Assembly (NCBI GenBank): GCA_048941015.1
Contig: JBHLNZ010000001.1
Span: 64,001-128,000, forward strand
Direction: 5' to 3'
Length of the DNA: 64,000 bases
From: Promethearchaeota archaeon
Lineage (GTDB): Archaea; Asgardarchaeota; Lokiarchaeia; Sigyniarchaeales; SOKP01
A model generated the notes under the pieces. That model worked only from the letters and a program-made list of their open reading frames with translations. It did not search any database and was not told the origin of the DNA. The position numbers and the translations under genes are program-made. Within the stretch, counting starts at the first letter, position 1; every line of letters begins with the position of its first letter. This document shows positions 34,909-49,146 of the stretch, in pieces.

Positions 34909-36996
34909 TTATCGATAAAACTCTTTTACGACAATTTGACAAAATTTGACCATTTTCTGCCCTAACTCTAATTCATTTCGGGAGCTTGTTAATATCCAAT
35001 CTTTACCATACAATTTATTCAAATATTCACCTTGAGAATCGATTGAAAAAGCAAAAACTCTAAATCTTTTTCTTACATCCTGAATATCTGGTATGGCATC
35101 ATATAAGCTATAACCGCCATCTGCTGATGGTTGTCCATCAGAAATTACAATTATGATATCATTTTTTTCTAATTTATCAGCCTCATGTTTTATTGAAACT
35201 CCATCGATATTTTGACAACATCGGCTATGGCAACCAAACTTATCAAATTTTCTGGGATCCAACTTCTCATTAAAATCTTTAACTAATATATTTAATGCAT
35301 GAAAACTACCGGTAAATAATACAATTCTAATCTTCGCAATATCTTCTAAAGCTTCATAAAGCATAATCATTGCGATTTTCGCTGCTCTTATTTTAATGCC
35401 TCTCATACTTCCACTTATATCAACAATTAAAATCAATCGTAACTCCTTGTTTATGATTTTTCTTGTAAAACATTGCTTGTATTGATAATCGCTTGTGACA
35501 GTTTTTATCAGCTTACTGTTCAATCTACCTTTCTTTTGGAATGTATCATTTGCAGACTTATTTTTTAAATCTGTAAAAATAACTTTCAATCTTTTAATAA
35601 TATTCATATATTTTGATTTAATTTGAGCGTAAGTCATTGAATCAGGCATCATAGACTGTGATTCAATTTTTACTTCATCAACATGCCTTTTTTTATTATT
35701 TCTACTAGGAGTAGGTTGATATTCTTGTCTTTCTAATGTTAAAAGACGTTCTTGCATTGCATCATTAGCTCTCTCTATAAGTTTTCCTATTTTTCTAATT
35801 AACTCTTTTTTCTTATTATCGACTGGCTTATTCTTGTTAATCTGATCTTTATTTAACTCTTCTCGGGAGTCCTTTAAATTTTCAATTTTACCATTTTTAT
35901 CGGACAAATCTTTTAAATTTAGTTCTTCTTTACTATTTCCAACATCAGAAATATCATTCTTTTGTGGATTATCTAATGAATCTTCTTTTCTTTCACAATC
36001 ATCATCCGATTCATCACCATTTCCCTCCCTATTTTTAGATTTTTCATCATTTTCATCAAAATGTTCTTCACTTTTACCAGAATTTTTCTTATTTCCACTT
36101 TTTTTTCCTTTGCTTTCTTTATCTTTATCCCTATTTTCATTTGCACTCTCTCCTTCATTATCCATTAAGTCATCTAAGTCATCTGGATCTAATTCTTGGT
36201 TTTTGATTTTTTCAATTAATTCTTCACTGGTTTTATCAAGCTCAGTTTTCTCATCATTTCGTTTATTTTTAGAGTTAAATTCCATTTGGTTAATAGTATT
36301 TCTATTTTGTCCTGATTGATTTCTTCTATTATCTGGTGGATTTTCTGATTCTTCAGGTAAATATTTTTTAAGAATTTTACAAAGTACATCACATGAAATT
36401 ATTGATGCACTAGGACTTAAGGATTTGAAAAGAAATTTCTTTACTTTAGCAATTCCTTTCCAATCATTTTTACTTAAATCAAATTGATTTAATTTAGGTC
36501 TTTTTTGAAAATCTTCAAAATTTTCCATATAGAGATTAATATAAGTTAAAATGTCACCATTTGAATTTATTCTTGATTTAATTTCTGGCAACATTTCATA
36601 TGTTAACATTCTTAAATTTCTATAAAATCCTGGAAACTTTCTTTTATTTATAGCATTTATTCTTACATCCTCTATAACATTTATCAAGTTTTTAGCAAAA
36701 CCTGGTGGCACTTTATGCTTTTTTGCTAATGTATCAACTAACTTTATAAAACTTAATTCAAATGAACCATAACCGATATGTCCACCTTCATGTGCAACAA
36801 GACCTTGAGCTGATTTAAGATCATTTTTAAATTTATCAGGTAAATATATGAATCTGCAATCAGTATATACTGAAGGAATATTTCCTATAAAATTAATCAT
36901 AATTTCTTTATTACCGCTGATTCGTTTACCAATATTAGTTAAGGCTAAAATATCAGAATTAAGCTCGCGTTCAAATAGATCAAATATGCTTTCCAT
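34909..36996 (-). CDS. VWA-domain protein (CobT/NorD-like) with N-terminal HExxH and a charged low-complexity linker
   Basis: AHEGGH, NVIEDVRI, MIDAS DISGSM...SDGQP. Confidence 0.8.
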   Translation of the reverse strand: MESIFDLFERELNSDILALTNIGKRISGNKEIMINFIGNIPSVYTDCRFIYLPDKFKNDLKSAQGLVAHEGGHIGYGSFELSFIKLVDTLAKKHKVPPGFAKNLINVIEDVRINAINKRKFPGFYRNLRMLTYEMLPEIKSRINSNGDILTYINLYMENFEDFQKRPKLNQFDLSKNDWKGIAKVKKFLFKSLSPSASIISCDVLCKILKKYLPEESENPPDNRRNQSGQNRNTINQMEFNSKNKRNDEKTELDKTSEELIEKIKNQELDPDDLDDLMDNEGESANENRDKDKESKGKKSGNKKNSGKSEEHFDENDEKSKNREGNGDESDDDCERKEDSLDNPQKNDISDVGNSKEELNLKDLSDKNGKIENLKDSREELNKDQINKNKPVDNKKKELIRKIGKLIERANDAMQERLLTLERQEYQPTPSRNNKKRHVDEVKIESQSMMPDSMTYAQIKSKYMNIIKRLKVIFTDLKNKSANDTFQKKGRLNSKLIKTVTSDYQYKQCFTRKIINKELRLILIVDISGSMRGIKIRAAKIAMIMLYEALEDIAKIRIVLFTGSFHALNILVKDFNEKLDPRKFDKFGCHSRCCQNIDGVSIKHEADKLEKNDIIIVISDGQPSADGGYSLYDAIPDIQDVRKRFRVFAFSIDSQGEYLNKLYGKDWILTSSRNELELGQKMVKFCQIVVKEFYR

Positions 36997-37003
36997 CTCA
37001 ATT

Positions 37004-38170
37004 TCACGTAACTGGAAATATTTCTTTTATTATTTTGTTTAATATCTCTGAATTATTTTGATAAATCCATCTTATATAATTTAGTGTGACTCCTCCATTG
37101 TAAAGATAAGACTTTCCAGTTTCTTCGTTATATTGATATGGTAAATTGAACTTCTCTGTTAATTGGATATATTGCTGAAAAGTTTTTCTATTATGCAACC
37201 ACATCCAGTGGATGACTTTCCACATTATAAGTCCATTAAACTTAAAAGTATTTTTTATTCCATATTTATCTATATAATCTTTAAAACAAACTCTTGTTAG
37301 AGAGATTATTTGATTTACATTTTCATTACTCATTTCAAAAGTAGACTCATTTATCAAGTCAACTGGTTTTCTTTCTTCTAATTGTTCTCTAATTTTGGAT
37401 TCAAGCATCTTTCCATCAATAATCATAGCAATACTTTTCTTCTCCTCGGGAGTTGTTCCAAGTTTGTTAATAATTACATTTTCAATATTATTTTTCAAAA
37501 AAACTGGCGGCATTTTCGAAATTAGAATGCAGAAATTAACGATTAGTCTAGTTGAGAAGATTTTTGTTATCGAAAAATCTTGTATAGCTTGTTTTCTTAT
37601 TTGACGCGCAGTATCTACAACAATCTCAGCAATTTTACTTTTGCAACCGGATATTTTAGAAACTATTTCTATTTCTTTATTTTTCAAAGGATAGTTTACT
37701 TCCGGGCAAATTATAAACCTATCTTCAAATGCTTCTTGGAGCTTATTAATACCAGCAACTCCTTTATTCATTGTACCTATAATAATTAATTTACTTTCAG
37801 AGTTGAGTTCATGTTTTTCAAAACCTTTTGAAATCAAATTAATATGATTTTCAGAAAGTAAAGAATTTAAAGAGATTTGTTCATTTTCTCGAATAGCGTT
37901 AATTTCATTAATTATAATAAATGAAATTCCCTTTTCATTCGCATCTTTAATAGCTAAAGTGAGCGGACCATAATTAAATTTAGTATCTCCTTTTAAAAGT
38001 TCCCAATTTCCTTCAATATCCCTACGATCAAGATCTGGAGATCCATCAATAATATAATAAGAAGCATGATAAGATTTCGCAAGGGAGATCGCTAAAAGGG
38101 TTTTACCAGTTCCTGGTGGACCATGCAGTAAAATTCCTATGCAACTTCCTTTACTAATAGAATTTATCAA
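37004..38170 (-). CDS. MoxR/CbbQ-NirQ family AAA+ ATPase (frame open upstream to ATT at 38242)
   Basis: HGPPGTGKT Walker A, GPLTLA, Walker B variant IIINEIN, GTMN, AFEDRF, STR. Confidence 0.85.
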   Translation of the reverse strand: MINSISKGSCIGILLHGPPGTGKTLLAISLAKSYHASYYIIDGSPDLDRRDIEGNWELLKGDTKFNYGPLTLAIKDANEKGISFIIINEINAIRENEQISLNSLLSENHINLISKGFEKHELNSESKLIIIGTMNKGVAGINKLQEAFEDRFIICPEVNYPLKNKEIEIVSKISGCKSKIAEIVVDTARQIRKQAIQDFSITKIFSTRLIVNFCILISKMPPVFLKNNIENVIINKLGTTPEEKKSIAMIIDGKMLESKIREQLEERKPVDLINESTFEMSNENVNQIISLTRVCFKDYIDKYGIKNTFKFNGLIMWKVIHWMWLHNRKTFQQYIQLTEKFNLPYQYNEETGKSYLYNGGVTLNYIRWIYQNNSEILNKIIKEIFPVT

Positions 38171-41414: not shown

Positions 41415-42308
41415 ATGATCTCAAAAATTTTTATCATAGGCCCCGGAGGGATTCTTTGCTATTCTAAAGACTTTTTTAGCAAAGTTGATAAAGATGATGA
41501 GATCGTTAGTGGTTATATTACAGCAGTAAGTGATTTTGCGAGAGAAATTAAAGGAGGCAAAATTGAATCCTTAATTTTTAAAAACTTTAAATTAGTGTAT
41601 TCTTATTCCATTGAATTCAACTGTATTTTTGTAATTGTCATCGATAAGGACGATTTGGAAGATATTGCGAGAAAGAATTTAGAATTGATGAAATCGGAAT
41701 TTATTAATAGATATAGACCCTATTTAGAAAAATGGACAGGACTAGTAAATATTTTTAGTGATTTTGATAACTATATTGAAGAGAATATATATATTCCACC
41801 TGAAATCTTATTAACCGGAGAAAAAGGAGTAGGGAAGACAACTATAATGAAGTTTCTCCCAGGTGAAATGATTTTAGAATTAGATGATAATTTCAATGAA
41901 ATTATACAAAAAACTGTTAAAATTAATGATCTGAAAGGAATAAAGGAATGTATAATTCGATCAATTAATCTAGACAATTTAGTGAATCATTCAGATCTCT
42001 ATAAAGAATATTTGAATTCTATAGATATTATTTGTATTATTACTAACTCAGGCGCTAGTAATCTTGGAAGAACAAAAAGATTATTCTCACTATTAGTAGA
42101 TAAAGTTCATACCTCAAATTTTTATGTTTTAGCAAACTTTCAGGATGAGGAAGATGCCGTACTAGATAAAGATCAAATTTCAGATATGTTTGGTCTAAAG
42201 ACTTATAGCTTTTCAGCCGTAGAAGCAAATGCAAAAGAATATTTTCTATTAATAATAAAAGAAATGTTAAGAGTCTCAATATCAGATAAACTTAATTTTG
42301 AATCTTAA
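41415..42308 (+). CDS. Longin-like domain fused to a degenerate small GTPase
   Basis: IFIIGPGGILCYSK...VSGYITAVSDFAREI (longin-like); GEKGVGKTT P-loop, NFQD at G4, FSA at G5. Confidence 0.8.
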   Translation: MISKIFIIGPGGILCYSKDFFSKVDKDDEIVSGYITAVSDFAREIKGGKIESLIFKNFKLVYSYSIEFNCIFVIVIDKDDLEDIARKNLELMKSEFINRYRPYLEKWTGLVNIFSDFDNYIEENIYIPPEILLTGEKGVGKTTIMKFLPGEMILELDDNFNEIIQKTVKINDLKGIKECIIRSINLDNLVNHSDLYKEYLNSIDIICIITNSGASNLGRTKRLFSLLVDKVHTSNFYVLANFQDEEDAVLDKDQISDMFGLKTYSFSAVEANAKEYFLLIIKEMLRVSISDKLNFES

Positions 42309-42313
42309 AATAA

Positions 42314-42814
42314 TTGATGTATATGAAAATAGATGAGGACTTTGTATTCCCAGTGTATATCTATGAAGATACCTTAAATGATATGAGGGATTTGTGTAAA
42401 AAGAACGAAAATGAGATTTTTGGATATCTTATAGGATTAATCTGCAGATGGAACAATAATTTTTATATAATTATCGAAGAGAAATTATTCATTGAAGGCA
42501 CATTCTATAGTCATAAATTATCTACGTCACAAATTGAGGGTACGGCAGGGAAATATGAGAGAGAGTTCCAAAAGTTAAAAAAAAATAAAAATATGAAAAA
42601 TTTACGTGTTGTGGGATGGTGGCATTCTCATCCTGATCTGGGATGTTTTCTTTCATTTACTGATCTACATACCCAAAAAGTTTTTTTTCCTGAGTCATAT
42701 CAAGTTGCTTTAGTTATAGATCCTGTGAAAGTTGATTATGAATTTTTCACTTTGGATAAAAATACAAAGAAGAAATATATTATTGTGAATCATGCAGTTA
42801 TTTCACGGACTTGA
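42314..42814 (+). CDS. JAB/MPN+ metallo-isopeptidase (Rpn11/CSN5-like)
   Basis: EIFGYLIG and VVGWWHSHPDLGCFLSFTD JAMM motif, ALVIDP. Confidence 0.95.
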   Translation: MMYMKIDEDFVFPVYIYEDTLNDMRDLCKKNENEIFGYLIGLICRWNNNFYIIIEEKLFIEGTFYSHKLSTSQIEGTAGKYEREFQKLKKNKNMKNLRVVGWWHSHPDLGCFLSFTDLHTQKVFFPESYQVALVIDPVKVDYEFFTLDKNTKKKYIIVNHAVISRT

Positions 42815-42858
42815 CATATCTATTGTTTGAATAATTAACTTAAGAGGTAAATAAAAAA

Positions 42859-43770
42859 ATGTCGGATAAAGATAAGCAAGAGATCATTTTTCTTGGGTCA
42901 GAATCTTTTAATTCAGACAAATACGATCGACAAAAGCGAATTAAAGGATGGGATCAAGAAAAAATTTCAAACGCTACTGTTATGATCATTGGAGCCGGAG
43001 CGACGGGAAATGAGTTAGTAAAAAATTTAGTTTTAACTGGGGTTGGAAAAATCTACTTGATTGACTATGATATTATAGAACGTTCTAATTTAAACCGTTG
43101 TATATTATTTAGTATTAAAATGAATAATGAACCGGAATACAAAGTTGATTTAATAAAAAAAGTATGTGAAAGTTTAAATCCCGGAGTAGAAATAGTTGCG
43201 ATAAAGAAAGAGTTAAACTCAATAGACCGGAATCTCTACAAACAGTCTGATATCATATGTTCTTGTTTAGATAATATTGAAGCTCGAATTGAAGCAAATA
43301 ATTACGCATATTACTATAAAACACCATTCATAGACTCTGGGATAGATGGTTATTTTGGAACAGTTCAAGCGGTTTATTCTGAAATTAAAGAGGCTCCTTG
43401 TCTACAATGTGGGATTACAAATGTTGATTTAGATTTAATGTGGAATAAATTCTCATGTACTGGTCAGGAAATCGACCCTAAAAACGGTGAAACATCCAGA
43501 AAAATAGCTACCATCATTACAACTACAGCAATCATTGGGGGTATCCAATCTCAACAGGTCTTAAAGTTTATTTTAGGGATTGATTATTTCAAGTCTAATA
43601 AAAAGTGGGACAGTCAAATAGGCGAACCTTTGATCGGTAAACAACTAAATTATAATGGTCTTACTAATAAATTTAATATTATTAAGAAGGTAAAAGATCC
43701 TGATTGTTGGACATGTTCATATCAAAATAAAAATAAAAATAGTTCAAATTTAAATAATACAAAAACATGA
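42859..43770 (+). CDS. Ubiquitin-like activating enzyme E1 (ThiF/UBA family)
   Basis: YDRQ, IIGAGATGNE, ERSNLNR, CLDNIEAR, CLQC and CWTC Zn ligands, putative catalytic Cys in FSCTG. Confidence 0.92.
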   Translation: MSDKDKQEIIFLGSESFNSDKYDRQKRIKGWDQEKISNATVMIIGAGATGNELVKNLVLTGVGKIYLIDYDIIERSNLNRCILFSIKMNNEPEYKVDLIKKVCESLNPGVEIVAIKKELNSIDRNLYKQSDIICSCLDNIEARIEANNYAYYYKTPFIDSGIDGYFGTVQAVYSEIKEAPCLQCGITNVDLDLMWNKFSCTGQEIDPKNGETSRKIATIITTTAIIGGIQSQQVLKFILGIDYFKSNKKWDSQIGEPLIGKQLNYNGLTNKFNIIKKVKDPDCWTCSYQNKNKNSSNLNNTKT

Positions 43771-43782
43771 ATATGATTAACA

Positions 43783-44346
43783 ATGCCTGAATTGCCGTTT
43801 GAAATTTGGAAAGATCGAATAAAAAATGAGATTAAAAGCCTGAAAGATCTGAATGTTATTGAAAAAGATTCAATAAAATGGCAAGAGAATAATGTAGAGC
43901 TTATAATTCATTTAAATTCATTAGCTTTTATACGAGGCAATCCAGGAAGCTCTCAGAGTTTAACACCAATAAGATCTCATCGTATTTTATTTAAAATAAA
44001 TAGATCTTTTCCATATCCGGGAGGTATTGACTTTGCTTGGTATTCAAATATATTTCATCCGAATATTCACCCCGTTGAATTATTAAATGTTCAAACAAGA
44101 GGTACGGGATATATTTGTCTAAATGTTTTGAAACAATGGTCAAGACTGTCAGATTTAGTAACTACCGTAAAAGCATTAGAAAAGTTAGTGGAAAATCCGA
44201 ATCCAGATGATCCTCTTAATTATGATATCTGCTTAGATGCTGCCAATTTTTTTAAAACGAATAATTATGATATCTTGAAAAAAAGATATATTTGTGAAGA
44301 GAAAGAGGAAAAAGAAGATGAGGATATAATTATAATTGATGATTGA
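43783..44346 (+). CDS. Ubiquitin-conjugating enzyme E2 (UBC fold)
   Basis: FPYP, IFHPNI, GYICLNVLKQWS (catalytic Cys), NPNPDDPLN. Confidence 0.93.
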   Translation: MPELPFEIWKDRIKNEIKSLKDLNVIEKDSIKWQENNVELIIHLNSLAFIRGNPGSSQSLTPIRSHRILFKINRSFPYPGGIDFAWYSNIFHPNIHPVELLNVQTRGTGYICLNVLKQWSRLSDLVTTVKALEKLVENPNPDDPLNYDICLDAANFFKTNNYDILKKRYICEEKEEKEDEDIIIIDD

Positions 44347-44359
44347 ATTTAAAAAATGT

Positions 44360-44620
44360 TTAAAAAAATCCACCTATAACTCTAGCCCATAAAGCTAATT
44401 TGTCATCTTCTTTTAATCCAAATTTATGGACTGCATCTTTGATAGTTATTGAATTTGGTAATTCTCTTTCATTAAGAACTAGTGTGTATGAACGTTGCTC
44501 CACATTTATAATTCCCATGTGTTTTATCACGATATCAATGATTCTCTCAATTTGGTGATGTTCTTTAACATCTAATTTAATTATTTTTCCCGTTCTAGTA
44601 TCTTCTACTGAGATTTTCAT
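44360..44620 (-). CDS. Ubiquitin-like protein precursor (ends RVIGG-FF)
   Basis: 86 aa; beta-grasp-like pattern MKISVE..TGKIIKLDV...GLKEDDKLAL; di-Gly followed by two residues. Confidence 0.88.
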   Translation of the reverse strand: MKISVEDTRTGKIIKLDVKEHHQIERIIDIVIKHMGIINVEQRSYTLVLNERELPNSITIKDAVHKFGLKEDDKLALWARVIGGFF

Positions 44621-44718
44621 TAATTACAGACCTTTCTATCTTTAAATGAATTTCAAAATCTATATTGATATATTAAACTTTTTAATAATTTTAATCTATT
44701 TGTTCTTAAAATTTTTTA

Positions 44719-45675
44719 TTATCTTAATTTTTTAAGAATTAATTGATATAGTTGCTCTACAGTCTTATCAATATCATTTTTATCAAAAGTAACACCAAGT
44801 TTAGTTGAAACTAATGTAGGGATGTCTTTTTCATCTTTGAAAATAGGAATTATTGGTTTTTTAATTTTCAATGCTGATTTCCATTCTAATTGAACCTGTT
44901 CAGACTTTTTAGCTTTTTTTGAACAAAAAAGTAAGAAGGCATCACAGATATCTAGATTTCTATTCATATAGTCATAAATATCATCCTTTAAATCTTCTTC
45001 CCAATAAAAAACTTTCTTAATCTCAGAATGTTGTTGAAGTTTTTCTGCAATATTATTTATTTCAAAAAAATCCGAGTCAAGGGTGCTATAACTAACAAAT
45101 ATTAATATGTCATTACTTTTAACAGCTGGTTGCTCTTTTAATACTACTTTTTCTTCATCTATCTTAACTTTTAGACTTTCATCTAATATCTCCTTTATAA
45201 TAGGAATAATCTTTTTTTTTGAATCCTTTTGAATTGATGAAATTCCATATGTTTTTACTCCAAAAATCTCCTCAATTTTTTTAGGTTCAATAGCAGTTTT
45301 TTCTTCATCTTGAAAATTCGCGAGAATATAAATTTTCGGAACACTTACTTTTGTTTTAAGTTCTGTAAGCAGCTTTTTAGTTCTAGCAATATTACTTGCG
45401 GCTGAATTAGTTACAATTAAAAAGATGTTAACAGACTTCAATATTTCTTTATATAATCTTGATTTTTTTAGCAATTCATCTAAATCAAACTTTTTAATAT
45501 TACACTTAATTATACCATCTGAACTACTGATTTCAACAGATTTATTTATAATCTCATTTAGATCATCATCTAATTCAATTAATATCTCACCGGGCAACAG
45601 GTTTAGTATAGTGGTCTTCCCTACACCCTTCTCTCCCGTTAGTAAGACGTTAGGAAGATTTATCTCTATCACCAA
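44719..45675 (-). CDS. Degenerate small GTPase fused to a C-terminal TIR domain
   Basis: GEKGVGKTT, NFQD; TIR motifs IFVSYS, FYWEED, DAFLLFCS...SEQVQLEW, PIIPIF. Confidence 0.85.
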   Translation of the reverse strand: MVIEINLPNVLLTGEKGVGKTTILNLLPGEILIELDDDLNEIINKSVEISSSDGIIKCNIKKFDLDELLKKSRLYKEILKSVNIFLIVTNSAASNIARTKKLLTELKTKVSVPKIYILANFQDEEKTAIEPKKIEEIFGVKTYGISSIQKDSKKKIIPIIKEILDESLKVKIDEEKVVLKEQPAVKSNDILIFVSYSTLDSDFFEINNIAEKLQQHSEIKKVFYWEEDLKDDIYDYMNRNLDICDAFLLFCSKKAKKSEQVQLEWKSALKIKKPIIPIFKDEKDIPTLVSTKLGVTFDKNDIDKTVEQLYQLILKKLR

Positions 45676-45883
45676 ATTAACGAATTAATAATGAAAAACA
45701 TATGATTCTTTGATTTATCTAAACTAATAAATCTGTTTTAATTAATAAAATGGATGAGTTTTATATTTAAGAGTTTCTATACTCGCATATCAACGTTTAA
45801 ATTCTATCTCTATTTACTATGGTTTAATCATTAGACTTTTGTGTAAAGATTTAAATATCAATAAGGAATAATAGTTAATCATT

Positions 45884-46534
45884 ATGGGTTCAAAAGGAAT
45901 CATTTGGGTAAAAAATTATCATGGGAGGCAACGTGATTTAAAGAAAGCTTCTAAAGATGCACAAGGATTTTATGATGTCTTGATTGGTGAACGTAGTTTT
46001 GAATACGCTAATGATTTAGCATGTGATCAAGATTTACAATCGGGTGGCCAAGCTGATGATATTGCTGATATCATATTTTTCACGGGTCACGGTCGTCCTG
46101 ATGCTCTCATATTTGGAATAGATAATAAAGATAATGGAGAAGCTCATTTTAGTGATATTAAATTAGGAAGTAAAACAAAATGGGTCGTATTTAATGCATG
46201 TAATGTTTTAACTTCTGAGAGTTACTCAAATTGGAAAGGAATTTTCGAAGGCTTACATATGATCCTAGGATTTAACACATATTGTCGTATTTCAGGTGAG
46301 CGTGGTAAAAAATTTGCTGAACTTTTAAATCAAGAAAAGAAATTAATTGAAGCATGGAAGATAGCTTGTGAAGAAACTGAAAGAGAAGAAGTTGAATGGT
46401 CATGTTTATTTGCTATGTCAGAAAGAGGTAATACTGCAAATGATTATTGGAACGAAAATAGAAACCCTATTAAGGATTCTATTAAACAACAGGAAAGAGG
46501 ATATGACATTATATATTATAGTGATTCATGTTGA
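45884..46534 (+). CDS. DUF6345-like protein, putative clan CD (caspase/gingipain-fold) cysteine peptidase
   Basis: DIIFFTGHG and WVVFNACNVL His/Cys motifs, GLHMILGF. Confidence 0.65.
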   Translation: MGSKGIIWVKNYHGRQRDLKKASKDAQGFYDVLIGERSFEYANDLACDQDLQSGGQADDIADIIFFTGHGRPDALIFGIDNKDNGEAHFSDIKLGSKTKWVVFNACNVLTSESYSNWKGIFEGLHMILGFNTYCRISGERGKKFAELLNQEKKLIEAWKIACEETEREEVEWSCLFAMSERGNTANDYWNENRNPIKDSIKQQERGYDIIYYSDSC

Positions 46535-46554
46535 TTAATATAGGAGGAATATGA

Positions 46555-47415
46555 ATGAATAATCTATTTAAAGAACCTGATGGTATTCCAAATGAGATAG
46601 GCAGCGTTCCTATATATAAAACGACAAATACTTTTGATAAGCAAAAGGATTTAAATAAAAGGATTAAAAATTATGCTAGTATGTTCAATATGAAAACTAA
46701 GTTCATAGATTATGGTGAGAGGCTATTGTTAAAAAACAATAAATTTAATCTTTTTGTATATAAACAAAGTGACTCCATTTTACTATTTACTCAAGACTTT
46801 AATATCAATTATCCTAAAAAGAAAATAAATTTACCAACGAAAGAAGAAGCTAGCCAAATTGCTATAAGTTATCTTAAGGAATTGAAATTAACTAATGAAT
46901 ATGCAGAAATTACAACTGTGAAGTACACTAAAGTAGCTAGTTTAAAATCTGGGCTAGAATCTCCTAGTTTAATAGCAATAAATATAATTTTTAGTTTTAA
47001 TATAGACCATATTCCTGTTATGGGCCCAGGTGCAAAAATAAAGGTAACAATTATTCAAGATGGAAAAGTAAATGGTTTAGTATATTTTTGGAGGGATATT
47101 AGCAAGGAAGATGATACTATTGGAGTAATTAGTCCAAAAGAGGCTTTAAAAAGGTTCAAAGCAGATAAAAGCTTCAATCAACTCAATCCAGAAACAGATT
47201 CTGTAATTATTAAAAATATTCAATTTGGATATTATTCATTGAGCCCAACTGATTATCAAAGATATCTAATTCCTGTATATGCTTTAAAAGGTTTAGTAGA
47301 AACGAAGTATGCAAATTATAATTTCGTAGATTATATTGTAGCAGCCAAAATATCTCCTCTTAAAATCAAAACTTTAAGAGTCGTAGATAATCCTTTCCCC
47401 TGTTTTATAATTTGA
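46555..47415 (+). CDS. Hypothetical protein, likely co-transcribed partner of the DUF6345-like peptidase
   Basis: AGGAGG SD; 20 bp gap; IPVMGPGAKIKV..WR, ISPKEAL, FGYY, LIPVY. Confidence 0.65.
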   Translation: MNNLFKEPDGIPNEIGSVPIYKTTNTFDKQKDLNKRIKNYASMFNMKTKFIDYGERLLLKNNKFNLFVYKQSDSILLFTQDFNINYPKKKINLPTKEEASQIAISYLKELKLTNEYAEITTVKYTKVASLKSGLESPSLIAINIIFSFNIDHIPVMGPGAKIKVTIIQDGKVNGLVYFWRDISKEDDTIGVISPKEALKRFKADKSFNQLNPETDSVIIKNIQFGYYSLSPTDYQRYLIPVYALKGLVETKYANYNFVDYIVAAKISPLKIKTLRVVDNPFPCFII

Positions 47416-47427
47416 TTAGAAAATAAC

Positions 47428-48495
47428 TTAATTAATTTTTTTACCTGTAATTTTAATCTCGTCTTTTTTCATTTTATATGGTTTAGTTGGTTTTGTTTCA
47501 TCAAATGGTTCATTACACACCCAACAAGCATTCTCTAAATTTGCCAATCTGGTAGAACAATTTACACAATAAAGAGCATTACAATTTGGACAAATATAAC
47601 TCATTCTTAGCACTTTTCCTTTACATACTAAGCAAATCTTCTTTTCTCTATGGAATATAACTTCTTCCTCTGAGATTTGCATTGGTCTTTCGTAAAATCT
47701 AAACATTGAATCTTTTACTTTTACCTCTTTTACAGTACGGATTTTGATTTCGGCTTCTTCCCTTAAACCGAGATAAAAGAAACAAAAACTAGTAGCCATG
47801 CCTACTCTCCCTATAATAAGATCAAGAATTAGTGGCCATAAAACTAAACCTGGAATGATATATCGTAATAACGATAAAGTTGGAGCTGCGGGGAATAAAA
47901 AATATCCAATGGCAAGGGTAAGAAACTTTTTTTTTAATACTCCTTTTGATTTTATACTTTTAATTAAATATCCTACTCCACAAAATATTATTCCTGAAAG
48001 CTGAAATACGTATATCAGAATCATAGCTATAGAATTAGCTTTGATTCCAACAACAATTATATTTTCACCTGAAGTTAACTCAAGATTACGAACATAAAAA
48101 CTTTGTAAAGGGGTAAGAATTATAATAATTTCAAAAACTATACTTAGAATCAGGAATGAAAAGAAGAGATATTTGGTTTTATTTGGAGTCATTAGCTCAG
48201 ATCCAATATAAATTGAAATAGAAATTACAAAAGGAGTAGTTATAAAACTTAAAATACCCATTAAAATCCAATTATCAATAGTAATAAAATTTCTACTTGT
48301 AAAGAGAATTCCAATAAAATCAAAAAAAGGTACTAACCAGAGAAAACTAGCTAAAAAAATATTAAACCCCATATATAACAAGAGTTTAGCGTTTGATTTT
48401 CTTGCTTGATATACAATTCCTAAGCCGAGTATTAAGGCAAATATAAAACAGAAGGTTGCTGTTAACCCATTAATCCAACCTTCAAATGAGAGCAT
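47428..48495 (-). CDS. 7-TM membrane protein with C-terminal C4C4 RING-like zinc finger
   Basis: Seven hydrophobic segments; CLVC-x10-CPNC-x4-CVNC-x10-CWVC. Confidence 0.75.
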   Translation of the reverse strand: MLSFEGWINGLTATFCFIFALILGLGIVYQARKSNAKLLLYMGFNIFLASFLWLVPFFDFIGILFTSRNFITIDNWILMGILSFITTPFVISISIYIGSELMTPNKTKYLFFSFLILSIVFEIIIILTPLQSFYVRNLELTSGENIIVVGIKANSIAMILIYVFQLSGIIFCGVGYLIKSIKSKGVLKKKFLTLAIGYFLFPAAPTLSLLRYIIPGLVLWPLILDLIIGRVGMATSFCFFYLGLREEAEIKIRTVKEVKVKDSMFRFYERPMQISEEEVIFHREKKICLVCKGKVLRMSYICPNCNALYCVNCSTRLANLENACWVCNEPFDETKPTKPYKMKKDEIKITGKKIN

Positions 48496-48616
48496 TTTAA
48501 AAGGTCTCCAATAATAATTTATCCTTATTTACTTTCTTTTTTATATTAATACTAGTTTATCTATTATTAAAAATTGAACTTTGAATTCATTTTAAAATAT
48601 AATTAAAAAAAAAATG

Positions 48617-48886
48617 TTATAATACTATATAATTAAAAGTTAAAATTGCCAGTGAAACACTTATTAGAATAATTAATATAGGTGCACACCCTCCATCGTC
48701 ACCTCTCGACCAAAGATCCCAAAGAAGTACAGCAACTAATACTGCTAATATAAAAATTAGAATCCATAGAACAATTGCGATTATAAGTAAGTCAATAAAG
48801 TAATATACAGAAGCTAATAGCGCTAAAATAAGTATTGTTAACGCTGAACCAGCTATCATCATCTTTTGAGCCCAAGATAAACTCAT
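48617..48886 (-). CDS. Small three-TM membrane protein
   Basis: Hydrophobic 89 aa; AAGGAGAG upstream. Confidence 0.65.
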   Translation of the reverse strand: MSLSWAQKMMIAGSALTILILALLASVYYFIDLLIIAIVLWILIFILAVLVAVLLWDLWSRGDDGGCAPILIILISVSLAILTFNYIVL

Positions 48887-49146
48887 AATTACAAACTCTC
48901 CTTTAAAATAATTTAATAAACTATTTTTTAATAAATTAGATTTGCGATTTCTTTTTTATTAATATTTATACTATTTAATTTTTTAATATAAAAATCTATA
49001 CATTGATGTCTGAAAGAACGATCGATTATGAGTATAAAAACATTTTTTGTTCGAAAAAATCAAATAATCTCTAAATTTAATAGCTAATCTAATAATTGTG
49101 TTTGATAATTTTTGATATTAAAAATCTGTGTTTTATGTTTTATCGT

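Follow-up and report, generated by a model that had tools for sequence, protein, structure and literature searches.

The operons of Caldiarchaeum subterraneum and of Asgard archaea encode ubiquitin (Ub), E1-like and E2-like enzymes, a small RING finger protein and an Rpn11-like JAMM protein (Clusters I-II, PMC5654768; PMC6043591). Supplementary Note 4 of Hennell James 2017 (PMC5654768) sets a 'Cluster III' apart by its E1, which at its C-terminus has no domain of the ubiquitin-like (Ubl) kind, and the paper allies it with the bacterial Ub/E1/E2/RING/JAB operons, citing Burroughs, Iyer and Aravind. The cassette described here lies at positions 41415-48495 of a 64,000-nucleotide stretch of DNA (the window), which belongs to contig C50 of a metagenome-assembled genome of a Loki-type Asgard archaeon (3.59 Mb, 95% complete). 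In common with Clusters I-II, it encodes at one locus a pro-Ubl with residues beyond its Gly-Gly, a JAMM protein, an E1, a ubiquitin-conjugating (UBC) E2 with the HPN motif and Cys, and a RING-type partner. It differs from them in its E1, which has 303 residues and no C-terminal Ubl domain against 389-410 residues in Clusters I-II, in the fusion of the RING-like finger to a seven-transmembrane (7TM) domain, in its dedicated GTPase neighbour, and in having no link to the endosomal sorting complex required for transport (ESCRT). The E1 without a C-terminal Ubl domain makes the cassette similar to Cluster III in this respect. No description of this layout was found in the searchable literature. 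We think it probable that the cassette is a self-contained accessory Ubl conjugation system of one Lokiarchaeial family, with dedicated GTPases, in which the GTPase module is a client or adaptor. Its composition is well supported by sequence comparison, and its mechanism is what we infer from that composition.

This part of the window has nine intact open reading frames (ORFs) with short gaps, exactly where the initial annotation had placed them. On the + strand run a longin-GTPase (41415..42308, 297 residues), a JAMM/MPN+ metalloprotease (42314..42814, 166 residues), a short E1 of the ThiF fold (42859..43770) and a UBC-type E2 (43783..44346, 187 residues), separated by 5, 44 and 12 nucleotides. 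This run is convergent with the pro-Ubl (44360..44620, 86 residues) and a GTPase-TIR fusion (44719..45675, 318 residues) on the - strand. Past the GTPase-TIR gene, a DUF6345 protein (45884..46534, 216 residues) and a partner of no known family (46555..47415, 286 residues) on the + strand are convergent with the gene for a 355-residue 7TM protein with a RING-like C4C4 zinc finger (47428..48495, - strand). The Ubl, GTPase-TIR, DUF6345 and partner genes are bridged by contigs from other samples.

The same set of genes recurs in related genomes. Scanning species-representative genomes with an alignment of the E2 gave about 62 Lokiarchaeial loci, a metagenome scan with the GTPase-TIR protein gave 12 further ones, and linkage was counted by domain-wise BLAST of all ORFs in about 70 loci. 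E1 and JAB are upstream of the E2 in all 62 loci with room for them, Ubl is downstream of it in 66 of 68, a cassette-type GTPase lies upstream of JAB in 54 of 58, and a finger gene, usually of the 7TM kind, is present in 36 of 43. By these counts the conserved set is one or more GTPases together with JAB, E1, E2, Ubl and a zinc-finger protein of the RING-like kind, and the tie between the GTPases and the Ubl core, seen by the initial annotation in a single stretch, is conserved across related genomes. The cassette E2 occurs in 73 of the 161 genomes of the class. In one family (f1), 69 of 134 genomes have it, with 43 of 54 in one genus and 14 of 41 in the genus of the window; in family f2 it is found in none of 14 genomes, and in a sister family (f4) in three of four. 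The f4 genomes have their parts dispersed, with Ubl (69-70% identical) and E2 elsewhere, yet GTPase and E1 are still 0.6 kb apart. The intact cassette is confined to one Lokiarchaeial family and dispersed in its sister. Over the 161 genomes, 64 have both the E2 and the GTPase, nine the E2 only, four the GTPase only and 84 neither, a co-occurrence that is descriptive since related genomes are not independent.

The canonical operon of the same genome is on a different contig (C29; L066:6518-10780) and comprises Ub (PF00240), an E1 of 410 residues, an E2 (UQ_con, E 6e-26) and a JAB protein of 277 residues. A 377-residue protein is encoded there too, with a C-terminus similar to the small RING finger protein from Caldiarchaeum loci. 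The window E2 shares 25% identity with its canonical counterpart, and the cassette is a second, diverged Ubl system distinct from the canonical Asgard operon, in keeping with the dedicated Ubl pathway of the initial annotation. The absence of ESCRT and proteasome genes remarked on for the window extends to its contig, on which no Snf7 or proteasome gene is found. Short E1/E2/JAB sets that are closer to the window proteins than to the canonical ones exist in Caldarchaeales and in one Micrarchaeota genome, where BLAST finds beside them neither a GTPase nor a 7TM finger nor a recognisable Ubl. The Caldarchaeales cluster (L138:7981-10778, L140:7993-10772) has a short E1 of 280 residues, an E2 of 272 and a JAB protein of 163; the other Caldarchaeales genomes searched (L142, L144) have the known Caldiarchaeum-type operon instead.

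The three enzymes retain their catalytic motifs, as the initial annotation had judged from the window. For the JAMM protein (Pfam JAB, E 1e-10), at least 97% of 57 orthologues retain E34, H104, H106, S114 and D117. The E1 matches Pfam ThiF over residues 28-284 (E 3e-49), which leaves no room for a C-terminal Ubl/ubiquitin-fold domain (UFD), and none is present; its GxGxxG motif, D138, C200 and the pairs C181xxC184 and C283xxC286 are conserved at the same level (at least 97%, n=57-60). The E2 (Pfam UQ_con, E 1e-9, above the cut-off) keeps HPN and C112 in at least 97% of 57-60 orthologues, with H92-P93-N94 and C112 invariant in the E2 alignment, and its matches in the PDB are eukaryotic E2s. Its mean identity among orthologues is 58%, and the range across cassette loci is 54-85%. 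The C-terminus of the E2 (44296-44343) has an acidic run, four hydrophobic residues and a final DD, similar to a SUMO-interaction motif. Nearly all cassette E2s have this tail, as do the lone E2s of family f4; it is missing in three loci. Docking of the tail on the longin domain was considered and dropped, since the tail is also kept where GTPase-TIR is the sole GTPase.

The Ubl ends in LWA[RK]V[IV]GG and a variable tail of 0-9 residues in all 56 orthologues, and in VIGG-FF in the window; the di-Gly first noted there is therefore a constant feature. The mean identity of the Ubl orthologues is 76%, above that of the E2. A profile of the family, searched against the PDB, matches ubiquitin and NEDD8 only, over the full length and ending at the GG. 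A single Ubl sequence reaches E 0.09-1 at best with phmmer, and hhalign finds no match between the Ubl profile and the canonical ubiquitin of the same genome (probability 0.3). The pro-ubiquitin of Caldiarchaeum is cleaved by Rpn11 (PMC5654768, PMC6043591), which is a precedent for trimming of a precursor by a JAMM enzyme, and the JAMM protein of the cassette is, from its sequence, likely to be both maturase and deconjugase of the Ubl. It is very unlikely that these genes form a ThiS/MoaD-ThiF type of pathway, supplying sulfur or a cofactor, in which no protein would be tagged. The short E1 finds its best NCBIfam matches in ThiF/MoeB models, every one of them below cut-off, but the UBC E2 with HPN and Cys, the JAMM protein, the RING-like partner and the tailed GG precursor are marks of protein conjugation, and the cassette has no sulfurtransferase and no thiamine or molybdopterin gene.

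The candidate E3 of the cassette is the 7TM protein. Its AlphaFold2 model (pLDDT 84.5) has seven predicted transmembrane helices, a β-hairpin loop between helices 4 and 5, and basic loops on the side that bears the finger; a disordered linker then leads to a β-β-α finger. The finger has eight zinc ligands, with Cys/His swaps at ligands 2 and 5, and its pattern over 31 sequences, C-x2-[CH]-x10-13-C-x2-C-x4-[CH]-x2-C-x10-C-W-x-C, has RING/PHD-like spacing. Against the PDB, the finger profile finds RINGs at E about 1e-3 (RNF113-type, RNF4, TFIIH p44, RBBP6, PCGF and TRIM37). The complex of E2 and finger is predicted with a score of 0.67, against 0.00 for the best of three controls; this score is reached by 58 of 80 solved complexes and by two of 110 mismatched pairs, and it measures likeness rather than binding, because RING-E2 complexes are a textbook pair. 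In the separate runs at least 75% of the contacts agree, and the pLDDT of the partner is at least 74. The predicted contacts involve, in the E2, helix 1 (residues 2-19, which is also invariant), residue 78 and residues 121-124, and, in the finger, the residues after ligand 1, the central helix and the Trp-Val between ligands 7 and 8. The modelled interface is on the canonical E2 surface formed by helix 1 and loops 4 and 7, and it is credible on the strength of these models that the 7TM-finger protein is the E3 of the cassette. What the initial annotation had called a RING-like membrane protein is thus a conserved partner, and the E2-RING pair modelled here was among those it had proposed to model.

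Two paralogues in the source genome have this 7TM domain joined to TIR, which argues, at the level of sequence, that the domain is a module for sensing or anchoring whose outputs can be exchanged. A word-index search with the 7TM part gives 22 relatives, a number too small to show how widely the family extends, and at some cassette loci the 7TM-finger paralogues are expanded in tandem. A second cluster of the source genome (contig C58, L065:7531-14536), with no Ubl enzymes nearby, has a 281-residue protein with a longin-like N-terminus, divergent from a transmembrane protein that ends in a RING-like finger (weak zf-C3HC4_3 match), and a 7TM-TIR fusion of 421 residues 3.5 kb further. Foldseek matches the 7TM model weakly to G protein-coupled receptors (GPCRs) (E about 1e-3, TM 0.35-0.45, rmsd 6-8 Å); the match is taken as a generic 7TM likeness. 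In having a multi-pass membrane domain and, after it, a RING-like finger in the cytoplasm, the protein is analogous in layout to eukaryotic ligases such as Hrd1, and by this analogy the cassette could possibly serve a cellular turnover or signalling pathway for membrane proteins, in which the GTPase would be a trafficking-type adaptor and the TIR version a lineage-specific add-on. The longin and Arf/Rab-like folds, described below, and the very high conservation of the Ubl fit such a role. Hrd1-type ligases are, however, not among the Foldseek matches listed for the 7TM model, where the weak GPCR-type matches appear instead, and effector-type domains such as TIR and the nitrilase-like one would be odd in a housekeeping pathway.

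The longin-GTPase has no Pfam family. Its AlphaFold2 model (pLDDT 82) has two domains, a longin domain (residues 1-126) followed by a small-GTPase fold. The longin part superimposes on CPLANE (Z 15.5, rmsd 2.4, 123 residues aligned), VAMP7 (Z 14.3 and 13.9) and Sec22 (Z 13.7), and the GTPase domain on Arf1 (Z 17.5), with Rab, Arf and MglA matched by Foldseek at about 1e-8. The solved structure of a Loki RagA-like GTPase is also among the fold matches of the protein (Z 14.6). The P-loop, NFQD and SA motifs (G135, G140, K141, N241, D244 and S267-A268) do not vary among 48 homologues, and the DxxG of G3 is absent from all of them: position 185 is Asp or Asn, and position 188 is Glu, Asp or Asn, never Gly. 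The two GTPase domains of the window are 49% identical to each other, and the next-best paralogues of the genome 26-30% in one comparison and 28-33% in another. Across loci the GTPase takes several forms: one to three tandem longin-GTPases, a longin-less GTPase-TPR, a GTPase-TIR, or a protein of 791-882 residues with a C-terminal CN-hydrolase match. In a quick maximum-likelihood (ML) tree, all 87 cassette GTPase domains are in one clade (SH-aLRT 100), separate from the other small GTPases of the genome. Asgard fusions of longin or roadblock domains with GTPases have been described as Rag-like (10.1101/2020.10.19.343400; PMC10933270), and Tran et al. 2024 (PMC10933270) found that the GTPase genes of MK-D1 generally do not share operons with those for roadblock, longin or TRAPPC3. 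The cassette longin-GTPase is similar to these fusions in joining longin to a small-GTPase fold. Unlike them, its clade has no DxxG, is linked in operons to Ubl enzymes, and has its longin swapped for TIR, TPR or nitrilase-like domains; the longin precedes the GTPase, whereas in Rag the GTPase precedes the roadblock, so that the Rag order is not found in the cassette protein. A 632-residue protein adjoins the longin-GTPase in four loci (L092:11147-13045, L124:3377-5275, L163:8074-9972 and L166:9851-11749); the L092 copy (genome G014), which was scanned, has a winged helix and TPR. The protein may be a dedicated regulator.

The GTPase-TIR protein combines a cassette-type GTPase, with its P-loop and without longin, and a TIR_2 domain (Pfam E 3e-15, 57 bits against a cut-off of 28). 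The TIR part is strongly conserved: E259 and E264 are invariant in an alignment of 26 sequences, with E264 in the motif SExVQ[LM]EW, its equivalence to the catalytic Glu being judged by motif position alone. Full-length relatives make up about 44 clusters in the protein collection. Full-length GTPase-TIR is present in three of the 161 species genomes, always beside the cassette Ubl, one copy being cut by a contig end. The gene order finger, JAB, E1, E2, Ubl, GTPase-TIR is found in all ten metagenome loci with enough flank, and in all 13 informative loci (three species genomes and ten metagenome loci) GTPase-TIR adjoins the Ubl gene. In the tree the fusion is one group of 24 sequences (support 88), beside GTPase-TPR, and because it forms its own group a recent local duplication was rejected as its origin. 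GTPase-TIR is thus an established lineage of the cassette's own GTPase and no chance neighbour. The coupling of Ubl conjugation to TIR proposed in the initial annotation holds in that the TIR protein is a real component of the cassette, and falls short in that it belongs to a minority, three of the 73 cassette-bearing species genomes. The bracketing of the Ubl genes by a GTPase pair is not a general layout; no longin-GTPase is seen in four of the ten metagenome GTPase-TIR loci with enough flank. A family of proteins of 1058-1143 residues (L069:3523-6885, L171-L177) has a C-terminal TIR 54-60% identical to that of the cassette. The L069 member, with 1120 residues, has a weak TPR match too, and in the closest relative one gene of this family is directly upstream of the cassette.

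Asgard genomes are rich in GTPase, TIR and finger paralogues, and the source genome has about 12 TIR ORFs and about ten 7TM or finger paralogues, so that the TIR, GTPase and finger genes might be taken for chance neighbours of an ordinary archaeal Ub operon. We find this scarcely credible in view of the three linkages (54/58, 36/43 and 13/13), the phyletic co-occurrence and the GTPase clade of its own. It is also unlikely that the loci are near-copies of one recent transfer, because the identity of the E2 ranges from 54 to 85%.

The DUF6345 pair occupies the place between the Ubl and 7TM genes, a slot that has other genes in relatives. The DUF6345 protein (Pfam E 3e-41) has GHG and NAC motifs, and its Atlas structure matches CHAT clusters (TM 0.68-0.71); it resembles, in the predicted structure, a caspase/CHAT-like fold with a candidate His/Cys dyad. 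The partner has no Pfam match, and its Atlas structure matches part of a cluster of 629-residue bacterial proteins, all members of which have DUF6345. The pair is absent from 72 other cassette loci, and DUF6345 is found in two of the 161 genomes, the other copy being unlinked to the E2. The caspase-fold protease that the initial annotation had counted as a neighbour of the cassette therefore has no conserved link to it, and the pair is, as far as gene neighbourhoods show, a separate inserted module, cargo in a variable slot outside the conserved system. Four relatives have in this slot a recurring pair of unknown genes, for proteins of 153-166 and 197-226 residues (L081:3899-4956, L082:11007-12082, L086:1420-2495 and L090:4218-5376), and two others have a radical SAM protein of 507-522 residues. 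In metagenome run X4, from another study, depth is near zero over window positions 45796-48965, which hold the DUF6345, partner and 7TM genes, and a contig of low depth connects 45796 with 48965 through 34 letters of other sequence. This junction may mark a strain variant without the three genes. On the other side of the cassette, the - strand of the window at 34909-38170 has a MoxR-type AAA+ ATPase (AAA_5, CbbQ_C) and then a 695-residue VWA protein, a pair that is unlinked to the cassette in relatives.

An antiviral role of the kind played by Bil and CBASS (cyclic-oligonucleotide-based antiphage signalling system) type II is a further possibility, which we hold only tentatively. The Ubl would then tag viral proteins or prime an effector, the GTPase would be an infection sensor, and the TIR or nitrilase-like domain an abortive-infection effector. 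In common with Bil and CBASS type II Cap2/Cap3, the cassette is a compact Ubl/E1/E2/JAB set with a patchy distribution, and in its GTPase-TIR subtype the Ubl set is paired with an immune-type effector domain. The 14 of 41 genomes in the window's genus, the swappable effector-like domains on a constant GTPase, the tandem expansion of the 7TM-finger paralogues the variable slot with its caspase-like module and radical SAM genes, and the scores of E1 and JAB against CBASS models of PADLOC are all what a defence system might show. The cassette also has a clean presence/absence site: in genomes of the same genus without it, UbiA is beside TauE, or one or two unrelated genes are between them, so that the 7.5-kb block, which lies between UbiA and TauE where present, is an accessory unit. 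In contrast to Bil and CBASS, the E1 and E2 of the cassette are separate genes, the E2 is of the eukaryotic UBC type, and the system has its own RING-like E3, which Bil systems lack. A 2023 copy of PADLOC, run on ten cassette proteins, gives matches only to E1-E2 (in its E1 part) and JAB models, as used for CBASS, to IetA and to PDC-M01B. The E2, the Ubl, the GTPases including the TIR fusion, DUF6345 and its partner all go without a PADLOC match. The E1-E2 fusion with a CD-NTase that defines CBASS type II is not present, the genes being separate and the PADLOC models matching the E1 part. What relatives carry instead between UbiA and TauE is metabolic or of the TPR/LRR kind, for which reason the site was rejected as a defence island, and the 76% mean identity of the Ubl is far above what an arms race would lead one to expect.

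The distribution bears on the cellular alternative in both directions. Retention in 43 of 54 genomes of one genus and the metabolic flanks are in its favour, but about half of the family is without it, as are all 14 genomes of f2, the neighbouring family, which marks the cassette as non-essential. Defence-like and cellular roles are about equally probable, and a membrane-sensed stress or conflict response is, we think, the most likely setting.

In the self-contained system that we prefer, the JAMM enzyme would trim the residues past Gly-Gly, and the Ubl would be adenylated by the E1 and passed via Cys200 to Cys112 of the E2. The 7TM domain would hold the RING-like finger at the cytoplasmic face of the membrane, where the finger would bind the E2 at helix 1 and at loops 4 and 7 and promote transfer. 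The GTPase module, as client or adaptor of the pathway, would either gate ligation or itself be tagged, and the domain appended to it, whether longin, TPR, nitrilase-like or TIR, would be the output. In the subtype of the window this output would be a TIR domain with a Glu at the catalytic position, and tagging or untagging could control an NAD-consuming or signalling effector. A still bolder reading, which we consider doubtful, is a prokaryotic receptor-to-effector pathway in which the 7TM domain senses a cue from the membrane or from outside and the RING tail and E2 tag, or the JAMM enzyme untags, a switch-defective GTPase and so release or assemble the TIR. If true, the archaeal lineage nearest to eukaryotes would have an arm of TIR signalling under the control of ubiquitin, with a logic like that of receptor/ubiquitin/TIR innate immune signalling.

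Several observations weigh against the system as we propose it. Contact between the GTPase and any Ubl enzyme is hypothetical; four of the 58 loci have no cassette-type GTPase, and seven of the 43 have no finger gene nearby. Without DxxG, the cassette GTPases may be pseudo-GTPases with a scaffold role alone. The finger core is modelled as β-β-α, with RING profile matches at E about 1e-3 only, and its cross-brace topology is putative. The resemblance of the Ubl to ubiquitin is weak in sequence, the profile match to any single ubiquitin having E about 0.1. The flanking genes are metabolic and none is of a defence type, and retention in 43 of 54 genomes of one genus fits a cellular role as well as one in conflict.

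In Asgard archaea small GTPases, longin domains and ubiquitin components are greatly expanded, for reasons that are unexplained. To our knowledge, almost none of these are in operons that hint at a role. The cassette ties a dedicated GTPase clade, physically and phyletically, to a full set of Ubl enzymes with their Ubl and to a candidate RING-like ligase of the membrane. It is a defined six-protein set that is open to reconstitution in vitro and makes the role of an Asgard GTPase testable. Since its range is a single family, it bears on how such modules are combined and not directly on the ancestry of the eukaryotic pathways. The window itself contributes the TIR-armed subtype and its strict linkage to the Ubl gene. 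The TIR-fused variant would have a measurable output, NAD cleavage, and may be a link between Ubl tagging and immune-type effectors outside bacteria and eukaryotes.

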